In this document: positions 1 to 28,416 of the stretch, piece after piece
How the letters are laid out: the number at the start of each line of letters is the position of its first letter
Position numbering within the stretch: the first letter of the stretch is position 1
IMG/VR virus record: IMGVR_UViG_2695420871_000006
DNA: 30,728 nt
DNA from: a virus
Taxonomy: Duplodnaviria > Heunggongvirae > Uroviricota > Caudoviricetes
Strand: one strand, 5' to 3'
Made by a program: the position numbers and the translations under genes
Notes under the pieces: model-generated
What the model was told of the DNA's origin: nothing
Seen by the model: the letters and a program-made list of their open reading frames with translations, nothing else
The model's database searches: none

Positions 1-195
1 GAGCTGCATGACAAAGTCATCGGGCATTATCTGAACATAAAACACTATCAATAAGTTGGAGTCATTACCGGCTGGCGGAGCCTTCAGTCTATTTTAATGC
101 CGCCAACGGGCCGTGGAGAATTGCTCTGGCCTATTATCAGGAAGGGCCGGTAGATTATAGCGCGGGTAAACGTGGAACGTGTATAGCGCGGCGAT

Positions 196-309: not shown

Positions 310-1047
310 TCATTCACTCTCTTTCAAACCAGTTTTAACTGTTTGTGGTTTTGGGTAAGGCTGGACTTTGAATAGCTTTGTGTTAAGGCGTTTTCTGGCT
401 CTCTTGTCCAGAAACCGGATGTAACGAAACTGACGGAATTTATGAACACTGGCTCTGTCGATATTAGCCCGCAGATGTTCACCTCGCTGTCCTCCTCGTT
501 TGATTGCATTCTTGCAAATCTCGTGATACCACTCGCCATCAAGTTCATAGAATGTTGTTTCATGACTGCCTACATAATCAAAATTGCTTGCCTGGTACAC
601 GACACCAAGACAGCCACAACGCTCATCTGCAAACGACTGAACCCACTGCACCTGCGGATAAAGTTGTCTGATTAGTTTGAGCGCGTAACTGATTGCCCTT
701 GATTCAGAGTTTCTCGGCATACAGTCATGCAGCCATAACCGGTTAAGCTCCATATATTCGCGGTTCTGCGTGCCAGTTACGACGCGTGCACCATTGTTTG
801 GATTAAGGGCATAACCCCATTGCATTACGCCAACCAGCTCCCGTTCTGAAAATATGCCCAGATGAAGGTAGGAATTATTTACGAAACGATGGCTGTAATG
901 TTTATTGACGACGACCAGCCGGGCCAGCCAGCAACTTATTGTCTCAACCCGTAACTCACGGGAGCCATAACCGACGATATTGTCGTTATAGTGAATAAGT
1001 TCAGGCGTGCTGATGATACGGGATGTAACTTGCTTTCTGTTCCCCAC
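310..1047 (-). CDS. mom: Mom-like DNA (adenine) modification protein, anti-restriction. Start uncertain: GTG at 1045-1047 is proposed, but the frame is open up to 1242.
   Basis: Large ORF overlapping and immediately downstream of com, and the last gene before the phage end as in Mu. The proposed GTG lies in the 3' arm of a hairpin with AAGGAAA in the loop. Confidence 0.7.
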
Positions 1048-1201
1048 GACAGGATTTCCTTGTGTATGTGGGGTGCTCTGTGGCGCTCTGAGATGTGATT
1101 TGATTGAGGGTTTTACAGCGCGGACATTTAACTTCCAGATAACTGAAGCTGGCTCGTGCCAGTAGCTTGTTACAATGTCGGCACCGTATGTTTCGATACA
1201 T
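1001..1201 (-). CDS. com: Com, zinc-finger translational activator of mom (about 66 aa from ATG 1199-1201; the track ORF extends to a TTG at 1246)
   Basis: Protein [34 protein letters not shown]... has a CxxC...CPRC zinc finger resembling Mu Com as recalled from memory. AGGAGG (revcomp of 1212-1217) lies 10 nt upstream of the ATG. Confidence 0.8.
1042..1073 (-). promoter_or_regulatory. mRNA hairpin (CCCCAC, 20-nt loop, GUGGGG) sequestering the putative mom GUG start and SD; candidate Com-responsive translational switch
   Basis: Perfect 6-bp GC stem read from the sequence. Matches the established Com mechanism of unmasking the mom translation initiation region. Confidence 0.5.
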
Positions 1202-1248
1202 GGCCGCATAACCTCCTGCTTTGTTGTTGATATCTTTATCACTCAATC

Positions 1249-1334
1249 GATCGACAAAAACGATCGATTTGATTTATTTAATTGATACAACAAATAACAC
1301 GAAATGTCATTAGCGAAAATTTATGAGTTTGATC
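1249..1334 (-). promoter_or_regulatory. GATC cluster upstream of com (GATC at 1249-1252, 1262-1265, 1331-1334; two CGATCG palindromes 13 bp apart); candidate Dam-methylation/OxyR-type control region of the mom promoter
   Basis: GATC sites read from the sequence. By analogy with Mu Pmom, where upstream GATC sites confer Dam dependence. Confidence 0.4.
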
Positions 1335-1457
1335 ACTAATTTTAAACGGTGCTGTAACGCATAAGTGCTGAATGATTGTACATTTGAATACCGCAAAGCA
1401 AACAAATCAACTAATTTATAGAAGTCAATTGGTTAATTGCCAGCGTAAGAGGCTGCT

Positions 1458-1751
1458 ATGGACAATCATGTAACGACGAGAAATCGAAAAATGATTGAAA
1501 ATGCGGAAATCTATAATGATTATTTTTCCGATTATTCAGATGCCTGCAAATACAGTTCGAGTGCGGGAGAGTTCATATGCTTCAACTTTTTTATTAAATC
1601 TTATGTTTTTCCTCCACAGCAAGAAGATGGAGGTGTGCCACCTCCTGAAATCACTTTGCACCGTATAGCCTCCGTCTCAATGATGGAGCAACAGGCTAAT
1701 GAGCTGTATAGCATTCTGGGAACGATTCTACAAAAGCGTGAATCGGACTAA
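1458..1751 (+). CDS. Hypothetical protein, 97 aa, AT-rich moron-like gene divergent from com-mom
   Basis: ATG with AAGAGG 6 nt upstream. Visibly AT-rich coding sequence in a GC-richer phage. No recognisable motif. Confidence 0.5.
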   Translation: MDNHVTTRNRKMIENAEIYNDYFSDYSDACKYSSSAGEFICFNFFIKSYVFPPQQEDGGVPPPEITLHRIASVSMMEQQANELYSILGTILQKRESD

Positions 1752-2208: not shown

Positions 2209-2391
2209 TCAGGGCTGGGTCGGGTCTTTTGGGAGCGGAGTTACCTGCGCTGTTTTACTGAGTTTTTCAGCTGCTGCGTCCTCAATTTTGCGGCGAACAT
2301 AATTTCTGATGGCCTTATAACCACCACTCACCAGATATAACGCACATACTGCCGTGCAGAAATACAATAAAATAAGCTGTAAAAATGTCAT
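2209..2391 (-). CDS. Hypothetical small membrane protein, 60 aa from ATG 2389-2391: one N-terminal TM helix followed by a basic segment
   Basis: GGAGGG immediately upstream of the ATG. Hydrophobic FLQLILLYFCTAVCALYLV followed by KAIRNYVRRK (positive-inside). The track TTG start at 2403 is less likely. Confidence 0.6.
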   Translation of the reverse strand: MTFLQLILLYFCTAVCALYLVSGGYKAIRNYVRRKIEDAAAEKLSKTAQVTPLPKDPTQP

Positions 2392-2406
2392 TATCCCTCC
2401 CAATTA

Positions 2407-27993: not shown

Positions 27994-28416
27994 TCAGAAA
28001 AGCCGTGGCTGCGTGCGTTCCTGATGCAGGCGACGCTGGTTGCGGATAACGGAGTAAATCTGCGTCTCTGACATCTGGTAGTGGCGGCGCAGGGTTTCAA
28101 TTTTTTCGCCCTGGCTCCAGCGGGAAAAAATTTCATTATTGCGCAGTTCGGTGAAAAGGGATTCACCGACCGGGAGATAATAACCACGCCCGCCCATGTA
28201 CCCGGCCTGTGCGGCTGCAACCTTACGGGCAAGCATTCCCGCCTGAGCAGGTTCAATCCCCTGACGGTGCAGTTCAGCACTGATCACATCAACCAGGTCC
28301 CGCAGCGTGCCGGGCCAGTTCTTTTTCAGCTCATCATCAGGAATATCATCCAGACGGTCAATCAGCGCGTGCAGCTGTTCGCTGTCACCAAACATGCTCA
28401 TCTGTGTTTCAGCCAT
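27994..28416 (-). CDS. Mor/C-family transcriptional activator of middle/late genes (140 aa)
   Basis: C-terminal ...GGRGYYLPVGESLFTELRNNEIFSRW...ETQIYSVIR is typical of the Mor/C family. GGAGG SD. Located between gemA and lys. Confidence 0.8.
   Translation of the reverse strand: MAETQMSMFGDSEQLHALIDRLDDIPDDELKKNWPGTLRDLVDVISAELHRQGIEPAQAGMLARKVAAAQAGYMGGRGYYLPVGESLFTELRNNEIFSRWSQGEKIETLRRHYQMSETQIYSVIRNQRRLHQERTQPRLF

Follow-up and report, generated by a model that had tools for sequence, protein, structure and literature searches.

The window analysed here, the whole 30,728-nucleotide stretch of a Caudoviricetes virus record (IMG/VR IMGVR_UViG_2695420871_000006), carries on its minus strand a DNA-modification (anti-restriction) operon of two genes, com and mom. 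They occupy the right-hand end of a Mu-like prophage inserted in ompG of E. coli. Within the Mu-like late region com-mom is likewise at the right end, and a divergent ORF of 86–97 aa lies upstream of the operon. The com gene is directly upstream of mom and the two overlap by 47 nt, an order with overlap that recurs in most of the related loci compared. The following features are distinguished.

310..1047, minus strand: mom, 245 aa, start codon GTG at 1047-1045, predicted Mom-family adenine N6-carbamoylmethyl transferase
1001..1201, minus strand: com, 66 aa, ATG at 1201-1199, stop at 1003-1001, with a Cys4 zinc ribbon
1042..1073, minus strand: translation-inhibition hairpin of mom, with a perfect 6-bp inverted repeat as outer stem (1073-1068 with 1047-1042) and an inner helix (1063-1058 with 1053-1049), which together mask the GUG and the Shine-Dalgarno GG
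1057..1061, minus strand: mom Shine-Dalgarno sequence AAGGA, 9 nt 5' of the GUG, read from the sequence
1073..1086, minus strand: putative Com-binding hairpin GCGC-CACAGA-GCAC, with a CC-N3-GAG motif at 1083-1076
1202..1248, minus strand: stretch of 47 nt from GATC III to the com ATG, in which the -10, the transcription start and the leader must all be accommodated
1212..1216, minus strand: com Shine-Dalgarno sequence GGAGG, 10 nt 5' of the ATG, read from the sequence and kept in relatives
1245..1269, no strand assigned: GATC doublet, 1249-1252 and 1262-1265, in a 9-bp inverted repeat AATCGATCG-N7-CGATCGATT
1250..1286, no strand assigned: putative OxyR site (OxyR tetramer consensus), which spans GATC II and the greater part of GATC III
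27997..28416, minus strand: Mor/C-family activator gene, the only one in the window, 40% identical to Mu C

Com matches the Pfam family PF10122 (Zn_ribbon_Com, Mu-like prophage protein Com; E = 7.5e-13, 48.2 bits against a cut-off of 22.9), and PGAP calls the same coding sequence in L003. Its cysteine residues at positions 7, 10, 26 and 29 (CxxC ... CxxC) align with C6, C9, C26 and C29 of Mu Com, to which it is 45% identical. This is in agreement with the first-pass annotation, which had recognized Com by its zinc finger. Mom covers positions 1–202 of the 202 in the Pfam profile PF25680 (E = 7.8e-78), corresponds to PHROG 1384, is 78% identical to Mu Mom and matches the solved Mom structure, PDB 8bv8, over residues 5–233 (E = 2.4e-123). 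The key residues of Mu Mom are Ser124 of NSES and Trp48 of SCWLAR in the numbering of the 241-aa protein (PMC13219725, which is also the source for the Mom chemistry referred to below). Both segments are present here, as NSESRA and ISCWLAR, and the catalytic serine of NSES is kept; in an alignment of 29 sequences S116 is invariant, and the catalytic and dimer residues are conserved. Profile searches, the comparison with Mu and the match to 8bv8 agree on a com-mom operon on the minus strand, and the system as such was already known as Mu-type com-mom. The range 1001-1340 that had been assigned to it holds com, the leader and the GATC sites, but most of mom (1047..310) lies outside it. Of 5426 complete E. 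coli genomes, 233 (about 4%) carry the module at 94–100% identity, and carriers of this prophage family include O157 and other Shiga-toxin-producing (STEC) strains.

The start codon of mom is GUG 1047-1045, as initially proposed. It is the sole ATG, GTG or TTG in the mom frame between 1209 and 825, it is the start annotated by PGAP in a 99.9% identical E. coli prophage, and the N-terminus that it predicts, MGNRKQ, lines up both with those annotated for 27 homologues and with that of Mu Mom when the latter is translated from its own GUG; none of these homologues was found to start at an in-frame codon outside the hairpin. A longer mom ORF, either a 310-aa frame from 1242 or one from ATG 1209, was rejected, since a stop in L004, a relative at 95% identity, breaks the frame and no homologue supports it. 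The window has no usable upstream in-frame ATG, and thus provides independent support for the GUG start, which in Mu mom is still mis-annotated in RefSeq.

GATC occurs just three times between positions 1 and 2478 of the window, at 1249-1252, 1262-1265 and 1331-1334. The first two read CGATCG, are spaced 13 bp start to start and lie one in each arm of an inverted repeat that is perfect over 9 bp. Numerically there is little in this: the window holds 97 GATC sites, which is below the 118 expected, and GATC-N9-GATC is seen once against an expectation of 0.44, with at least one occurrence in 30 of 100 shuffles. Taken alone, neither the doublet nor the masking hairpin of mom is convincing against chance. 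The significance of both rests on position and conservation: each lies at a position homologous to that of a Mu element defined by experiment, and each is found again in relatives.

In an anchored comparison, Mu GATC II and III have their homologues in the sites at 1262 and 1249, with an equal 9-nt spacer and equal flanks, and so have GATC II and III of E. coli agn43. The doublet core reads ATCgatcGTTTTTGTCgatcGAT in the window, ATCgatcGGTAATACAgatcGAT in Mu and ATCgatcGTTTATATCgatcGAT in agn43, and the window has the GATC-N9-GATC core together with its flanks (ATCgatcG ... TCgatcGAT). All 33 unique enterobacterial com upstream regions carry the doublet and none of the non-enteric ones does; it is confined to enterobacterial, Dam-positive lineages. 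Mu GATC site I has no counterpart in the window, the position reading AATT or TATT. The third GATC, at 1331, is located 66 nt further upstream, in non-homologous DNA that is not shared with the 95%-identical relatives. The earlier likening of the three sites, two of them CGATCG palindromes 13 bp apart, to the control region of Mu is thus accurate in its positions and in the homology of 1249 and 1262, but does not extend to 1331, and site I is missing. A plus-strand "terminator" at the GATC palindrome was discarded; its stem is rich in A and T, and what is conserved there is the GATCs.

The match to the OxyR tetramer consensus at 1250..1286 comprises 13 of 20 specified positions and is tied for the top score among about 61,000 positions, in a region that is AT-rich like the motif itself, and is taken here as a lead to a candidate OxyR site; with the same consensus, Mu Pmom scores 13 and agn43 14. 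In Mu, mom is regulated by Dam, OxyR, C and Com (PMC3378877). Judging from the sites, control of com-mom transcription by Dam and OxyR would be plausible here.

A promoter scan revealed no convincing sigma-70 promoter on the minus strand of this region. The distance from GATC III to the com ATG is 47–53 nt in the class to which the window belongs versus 67–79 nt in the Mu class, and with 47 nt in the window against 74 nt in Mu there is no room for the Mu C-binding site or a -35. The C site of Mu Pmom (TTAT-N6-ATAA) is absent between the GATC region and com. The relatives L113, L114 and L115 have TATACT or TATAGT 7–9 nt past GATC III; the -10-like sequence GATAAAGAT is not conserved, and relatives at 95% identity read GAGAAAGGC. 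The late-promoter signature of the phage itself, CCGCAAA-N22/23-TAnnCT, is likewise absent at com-mom and is confined to 27989, 19802 and 4660, the three clear late promoters of the phage. A C-box-like sequence, TCGCTAA-N22-TATCAA at about 1316-1282, was judged a chance occurrence; it fails with respect to T6 and is not conserved in L004. The product of the Mor/C-family gene (Pfam Mor, E = 6.7e-31) is a candidate activator of the phage late promoters, and might also act on the com-mom promoter, which presumably lies just 5' of com.

The window, the O157 Sp18-like phages, L007 and L113–L115 form a class that may have a second mom promoter architecture, in which the GATC doublet overlaps the -35/spacer region without a separate C site. 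With such an architecture OxyR and methylation may switch the operon directly, in an agn43-like manner and possibly independently of the late activator. If the -10 is just downstream, the OxyR site overlaps the core promoter, and OxyR would then repress directly, as at agn43 and unlike the indirect effect in Mu.

The 9-bp inverted repeat could instead be the operator of some other dimeric regulator of phage or host, such as the Mor/C-family activator of the phage; it would then occupy the place required of an activator in so short a promoter, and Dam and OxyR would be irrelevant. Mor/C proteins have dyad-symmetric binding sites, the dyad AATCGATCG-N7-CGATCGATT would span approximately -20 to -45 with a -10 some 10 nt downstream, and with the Mu C site missing there is no other activator-like site upstream. 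However, in Mu this doublet, identical in spacing and flanks, lies upstream of a separate C site, and it is also present in E. coli agn43, which has no C protein; furthermore, the box shared by the three clear late promoters of the phage, CCGCAAA, is a different one, the only phages to carry the doublet are those of Dam-positive hosts, and it is at the doublet that the OxyR consensus scores highest. An operator of this kind is in our judgement improbable, and we retain the doublet as a probable Dam/OxyR element.

In Mu, the GUG of mom lies within the stem of a translation-inhibition structure, beside the Com-binding hairpin (PMC6483171). The outer stem of the corresponding structure in the window pairs CCCCAC (1073-1068) with GUGGGG (1047-1042), with 20 nt between the arms. 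The stem is a perfect one of 6 bp and has the GUG in its 3' arm, as had been described, but it consists of five G-C pairs and one A-U pair and is not GC throughout. AAGGAAA is indeed found between the arms, at 1061-1055; its GG, however, is not free in the loop, but is paired with C1052 and C1053 in an inner helix of the minimum-energy fold (A1063-U1049, C1062-G1050, A1061-U1051, G1059-C1052 and G1058-C1053). The hairpin has a free energy of -12.6 kcal/mol, and the probability of the GUG being unpaired is 0.00 in a model of a 267-nt transcript; compared with shuffled sequences z is -2.2, with 6 of 200 shuffles folding equally well.

Leaders of relatives were aligned by MAFFT with longer flanks. 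Among 16 Mu-type relatives, the arms are paired in 96 of 96 cells, and the outer pair covaries, being C-G in nine, U-A in six and U.G in one. The loops vary in sequence and are 11 to 20 nt long, and they hold GGAG or AGGA in the matching place. Four of the six stem pairs are invariant, and since these lie in two overlapping frames (Com ..HPT.., ..C-R/G-G.., Mom start), the conservation could in part reflect constraint on the coding sequences. In a crude test that separates the two groups only weakly, the start codon is fully inside a 3' arm in 32 of 54 loci with com and in 11 of 28 without. The arrangement described in the first-pass annotation, with the GUG in the 3' arm and the Shine-Dalgarno sequence between the arms, is conserved in the 16 relatives.

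The Com hairpin sits immediately 5' of the masking hairpin, and C1073 is common to both. It aligns without gaps with AUGC-CUGCGA-GCAU of Mu. In the present lineage C1085 and A1074 are mismatched, so that three of the four pairs form, and in the variant L092 this C.A is repaired to U-A. Across 15 relatives all four pairs covary with changes on both sides and 93% of cells are paired; none of 500 shuffles reached this level of either pairing or covariation, and the signal collapses when the register is shifted. The nucleotides of the 6-nt loop are predicted to stay unpaired (P = 0.66–0.97), and the hairpin on its own is, by prediction, barely stable (-0.4 kcal/mol). CC-N2-4-GAG is present at most 50 nt upstream of the candidate mom start in 51 of 54 loci with com, compared with 6 of 28 without com. 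Rfam was found to hold no family for the com-mom leader. Com of Mu binds a hairpin adjoining the translation-inhibition structure, with a CC(N)2-3GAG motif derived from SELEX and a binding model (PMC6483171). This work and the shared C1073 suggest that Com would bind the leader here as well, and that the mask would be opened as a result.

Alternatively, the masking hairpin might be a by-product of overlapping coding constraints, with mom being expressed through translational coupling to com and not through unmasking by Com. Both arms lie inside the 47-nt com/mom overlap, the invariance of four of six pairs in the 16 relatives would be accounted for, the stem alone is statistically unexceptional, and com ends 44 nt downstream of the GUG, so that ribosomes translating com must melt the hairpin. 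Several observations speak against this reading: the outer pair alternates between C-G and U-A with zero unpaired cells, the arms persist while the length and sequence of the loop vary freely, and the covariation in all four pairs of the Com hairpin is unexpected under coding constraint; moreover, in Mu, Com is needed in trans and binds the leader RNA (PMC6483171, PMC3378877). We therefore regard coupling of this kind as quite improbable. That com-mom is in decay in this lineage of prophages, a remnant with poor expression, as the loss of GATC site I, the mismatched Com hairpin, the loss of the mom body with retention of com in L002 and H48, the negative promoter scan and the variation of the -10-like sequence among close relatives might indicate, is highly improbable given that both reading frames are intact, that the catalytic and dimer residues are conserved, that the module persists at high identity in the 233 E. 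coli genomes, and that Mu Pmom is likewise a very poor promoter by design (PMC3378877).

The analysis establishes which genes these are and where mom starts, the two conserved RNA structures, and the homology of the GATC doublet. In its mode of action this Mu-like com-mom operon most likely resembles that of phage Mu. From a promoter just 5' of com, weak and regulated, a bicistronic mRNA would arise, on which com would be translated from AUG 1201. Unaided translation of mom would be blocked, with GUG 1047 and the Shine-Dalgarno GG locked in the hairpin 1073..1042. Com, a zinc-ribbon RNA-binding protein, would bind the small hairpin 1086..1073 with its loop motif CC-ACA-GAG, and because this hairpin and the masking stem share C1073, we propose that Com binding destabilises the mask, allowing ribosomes to start at the GUG. 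Using glycyl-tRNA, Mom would then convert adenines in the phage DNA to N6-carbamoylmethyl-adenine, which would protect the DNA from restriction. Transcription would probably be gated by Dam and OxyR via the doublet at 1249/1262, with OxyR blocking the promoter when bound to an unmethylated or hemimethylated site, and full methylation releasing it.

The first-pass reading of com-mom is essentially right; the window has the known Mu-type system, here with a variant promoter. The Mu scheme for restraining a toxic DNA-modification enzyme is thus conserved in a prophage family of about 4% of complete E. coli genomes, and both RNA helices, hitherto defined only biochemically in Mu, now have support from covariation. 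The two-GATC promoter with its short spacer indicates that the transcriptional layer of control is more plastic than the translational layer.

Compared with Mu, and also D108 and SfMu, the window has the same gene order, right-end position and com/mom overlap, a Com with the same Cys4 zinc ribbon and a closely similar Mom. As in Mu, a CCCAC/GUGGG stem has the GUG in its 3' arm and encloses the Shine-Dalgarno sequence, a CC-N3-GAG Com hairpin lies directly 5' and has one nucleotide in common with the mask, and GATC II and III are separated by a 9-nt spacer. Aligning the region with Mu com-mom, a check suggested at the outset, thus finds the genes, both hairpins and GATC II/III homologous, but promoter geometry, site I and the C site different. 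The loop is 20 nt here and 11 nt in Mu, and the inner helix here also pairs the Shine-Dalgarno GG; the outer pair of the mask is C-G here and U-A in Mu; the C.A mismatch in the Com hairpin and the lack of an in-frame ATG between 1209 and the GUG also set the window apart. At the promoter, the window has two GATC sites, with site I absent and the shorter distance from GATC III to the com ATG, and there are no counterparts to the C site (ATTATGCCCCAATAAC), the -35, the T6 spacer and the TAAGAT -10 of Mu. Finally, there is no gin/G-segment upstream, its place being taken by the divergent 86–97-aa ORF.

The Dam/OxyR switch of agn43 (flu) shares a near-identical core with the window, and the two score similarly against the OxyR consensus (14 and 13 of 20, respectively). 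There are, however, three GATCs in agn43 and two here, those of agn43 are located just downstream of the transcription start, and agn43 is a heritable phase-variation switch, whereas nothing in the window shows phase variation.

Non-enteric Mu-like prophages from Desulfovibrio, Alphaproteobacteria and Pseudomonas (L013–L084) resemble the window in having com directly upstream of, and overlapping with, mom, and in having a GCC-N2-4-GAGC motif on the 5' side of a hairpin in which the start codon of mom is contained, but the GATC doublet is absent from them. In roughly one in three of them the strand that pairs with the start codon is the Com motif (GCCAU/AUGGC, GCCAC/GUGGC, and GCCGU with AUGGC or GUGGC), whereas the window uses a separate CCCCAC beside the motif. 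With the proximal copy of the motif, 13 of 40 loci show complementarity between motif and start, where 7.6 would be expected (p about 0.002 in a post hoc test); with the distal copy it is 14 of 41 against 13.8 expected (p = 0.55). The Com-binding motif may be the strand that pairs with the start codon in many lineages, and the leader with its Com site and masked start may be an ancient, uncatalogued cis-regulatory RNA that extends from Enterobacteria to Desulfovibrio and Alphaproteobacteria. That a second promoter architecture and such an ancient RNA element should both hold is, as a joint proposal, rather unlikely, and we advance it tentatively.

The window comprises, in reverse orientation, the late region of a Mu-like prophage: Mu gemA, C, lys, the head and tail genes and S all have collinear minus-strand homologues between 28999 and 5769, and com and mom are the final two genes of this strand. 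At the right end, ompG contains both IS1 and the prophage, not more than about 110 bp apart. A small ORF divergent from com (86–97 aa, 1458–1751, plus strand), for which no family match was found, occupies the place of Mu gin and is followed by a GC-rich hairpin, CAAACCGG...CCGGTTTG (1888–1915); the 95% relatives carry a different ORF there, which places a mosaic joint near 1296–1309.

Features of the window
1–69: IS1 right end
70–180: E. coli ompG
from about 180: phage right end (TGTATAGCGCGGCG...)
1047..310, minus: mom, 245 aa; Pfam Mom, E = 7.8e-78; PHROG 1384
1201..1001, minus: com, 66 aa; Pfam Zn_ribbon_Com, E = 7.5e-13, 48.2 bits (cut-off 22.9)
1086..1073, minus: putative Com site, GCGC-CACAGA-GCAC, directly 5′ of the masking hairpin
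1249, 1262, 1331: GATC sites, the only ones in 1–2478
27989, 19802, 4660, minus: CCGCAAA signatures, upstream of the lys homologue, the gene I homologue and a 684-aa tail-fibre-like gene
28416..27997, minus: single Mor/C-family gene

The first-pass annotation proposed a com-mom operon with the mom GUG in the 3′ arm of a hairpin, and this is confirmed by the profile matches, the comparison with Mu and the 6-bp stem; its interpretation is supported, with corrections to Shine-Dalgarno pairing, GATC-site homology and promoter layout. In the alignment with the Mu com-mom region, Com is 45% identical to its Mu counterpart with all four cysteines aligned, Mom is 78% identical, and the hairpins lie at equivalent positions. 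Mom also matches the solved Mu enzyme (8bv8, E = 2.4e-123) and keeps the Ser of NSES and the Trp of SCWLAR, both of which matter in Mu. Among 5426 complete E. coli genomes, 233 carry the module at 94–100% identity, and PGAP calls the identical two CDSs in these copies. For Com in loci L003–L005, PGAP gives the name 'Com family DNA-binding transcriptional regulator', contrary to published work, in which Com is an RNA-binding translational activator. A Mu-like element within an Stx2c phage (L002 1610–1818; LC727881), and likewise the search match H48, retains com together with the Com and masking hairpins, with the mom body deleted directly after GUGGGGAACAAG; com is thus an orphan in some relatives.

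The start of mom is assigned to GTG 1047–1045; between 1209 and 825 the mom frame contains no other ATG, GTG or TTG. Initiation at 825 would cost the conserved N-terminal domain, and ATG 1209 lies 2 nt past the Shine-Dalgarno sequence of com, in a frame that a stop codon interrupts further upstream in L004, a 95% relative. Read from GUG, the N-terminus lines up with those annotated for 27 homologues and with that of Mu Mom when the latter is likewise translated from GUG. The RefSeq start of Mu mom is an ATG 30 nt upstream of GUG, inside the Com hairpin, giving 241 aa (NC_000929 35877 vs 35907; 628 vs 658 in the Mu locus L001), whereas published work starts it at the GUG located in the translation-inhibition stem (PMC6483171). 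Mom tolerates a 10-residue N-terminal truncation (PMC13219725), and the crystallised chain has 232 aa. At the position equivalent to that ATG the window lacks a start codon, which is independent support for GUG; literature, crystallised protein and the present sequence all favour the downstream start for Mu mom.

The masking hairpin has a perfect 6-bp stem, CCCCAC (1073–1068) with GUGGGG (1047–1042), with 20 nt between the arms, and its Mu equivalent, CCCAC-GGAGAAACAUU-GUGGG, has an identical position relative to the com and mom frames. The minimum-energy fold has a free energy of −12.6 kcal/mol (z = −2.2); the stem is unremarkable by itself, and it draws its weight from homology with Mu. Modelled within a 267-nt transcript, the GUG has a pairing probability of about 1.00, and the Com-site loop is mostly unpaired. 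The Shine-Dalgarno sequence AAGGA (1061–1057) lies between the arms, as first described, but its GG pairs with C1053 and C1052 in an inner helix of the minimum-energy fold. Among 16 distinct Mu-type leaders, with loops of 11–20 nt that differ in sequence, 96 of 96 arm cells are paired. Four pairs are invariant and lie within two overlapping reading frames, where structural and coding constraint are not fully separable. The outermost pair varies (C-G in nine, U-A in six, U.G in one), the C-to-U change in a single leader preserving a wobble pair.

The putative Com site aligns without gaps to the Mu hairpin AUGC-CUGCGA-GCAU, whose loop is bound by Com and which contains the SELEX motif CC(N)2-3GAG (PMC6483171). 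All four pairs have changed on both sides among 15 distinct relatives, and 93% of the cells are paired; none of 500 shuffles matches these values, and pairing collapses in shifted registers. All four unpaired cells come from the lineage of the window, with a C.A mismatch at the second pair, which is U-A in the natural variant L092. C1073 pairs both with G1086, closing the Com hairpin, and with G1042, opening the masking stem, so that the two hairpins are in competition for this nucleotide; joint covariation is seen at all three positions (G/C/G vs A/U/A). This anatomy is as expected if Com, which by analogy with Mu would bind here, destabilises the mask on binding.

Most of 80 genome loci encoding Mom relatives have com directly upstream of mom. 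CC-N2-4-GAG occurs within 50 nt upstream of a candidate mom start in 51 of the 54 loci that have com and in 6 of the 28 that lack it. The motif is itself complementary to the start codon in many loci from Desulfovibrio and Alphaproteobacteria (GCCAU/AUGGC, GCCAC/GUGGC, GCCGU/AUGGC or GUGGC). Perfect matches numbered 13 in 40 in a fixed-register test, vs 7.6 expected (p ~0.002), and an earlier version using the distal motif copy was negative, so this pairing is suggestive only. Rfam includes no family for the Com-site/masking leader. Serratia and Yersinia mom homologues without com (L016–L020, L134–L167) lie just downstream of a tRNA gene and share, about 150 nt upstream of mom, a conserved leader that appears to be structured (...GAAATGGGCGACCCCGG...GGTCATGAGTATAACCAAGGCCCACCC...), which has no Rfam match and may be a different control device.

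Three GATC sites matching Mu had been proposed. For two of them, 1262 and 1249, an anchored comparison shows homology to GATC II and III of Mu and to the corresponding pair of E. coli agn43 (window, ATCgatcGTTTTTGTCgatcGAT; Mu, ATCgatcGGTAATACAgatcGAT; agn43, ATCgatcGTTTATATCgatcGAT), but 1331 lies in DNA absent from the 95% relatives, whose similarity begins near 1296–1309. The doublet is statistically weak alone (1 observed vs 0.44 expected); GATC-N9-GATC is found in 33 of 33 unique enterobacterial com upstream regions and in no non-enteric one. A third GATC lies 14 nt upstream of the doublet in Mu-class phages and 27 nt upstream in L007, L114 and L115; no such third site occurs in the window or its close relatives, and the window lacks the three-site arrangement of the Mu Pmom/agn43 type. 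Against an OxyR consensus, 1250–1286 scores 13/20, joint best in the window, compared with 13 for Mu Pmom and 14 for agn43. The only other 13/20 match, at 2423–2459 just upstream of a DUF1378 gene (2403..2209), is probably a chance occurrence in AT-rich DNA. Dam/OxyR control of com-mom is therefore a reasonable inference.

The phage-forward (minus) strand has exactly three copies of CCGCAAA-N22/23-TA(C/T)(G/T)CT, and these signatures are probably late promoters recognised by the single Mor/C-family activator; the signature is absent upstream of com, where a promoter scan also detected no sigma-70-like promoter. In L113–L115, TATACT or TATAGT lies 7–9 nt past GATC III, so that the doublet would cover the −35 and spacer; at this position the window reads GATAAAGAT, which is not conserved. 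Likeness to Mu Pmom extends to the homologous GATC doublet but not to promoter geometry: Mu has 74 nt from GATC III to the com ATG (67–79 nt in its class), containing the C site, a poor −35, a T6 spacer and TAAGAT, whereas the window has 47 nt (47–53 nt in its class). Com-mom is a known system, to which the window adds a member with a variant transcriptional layer.
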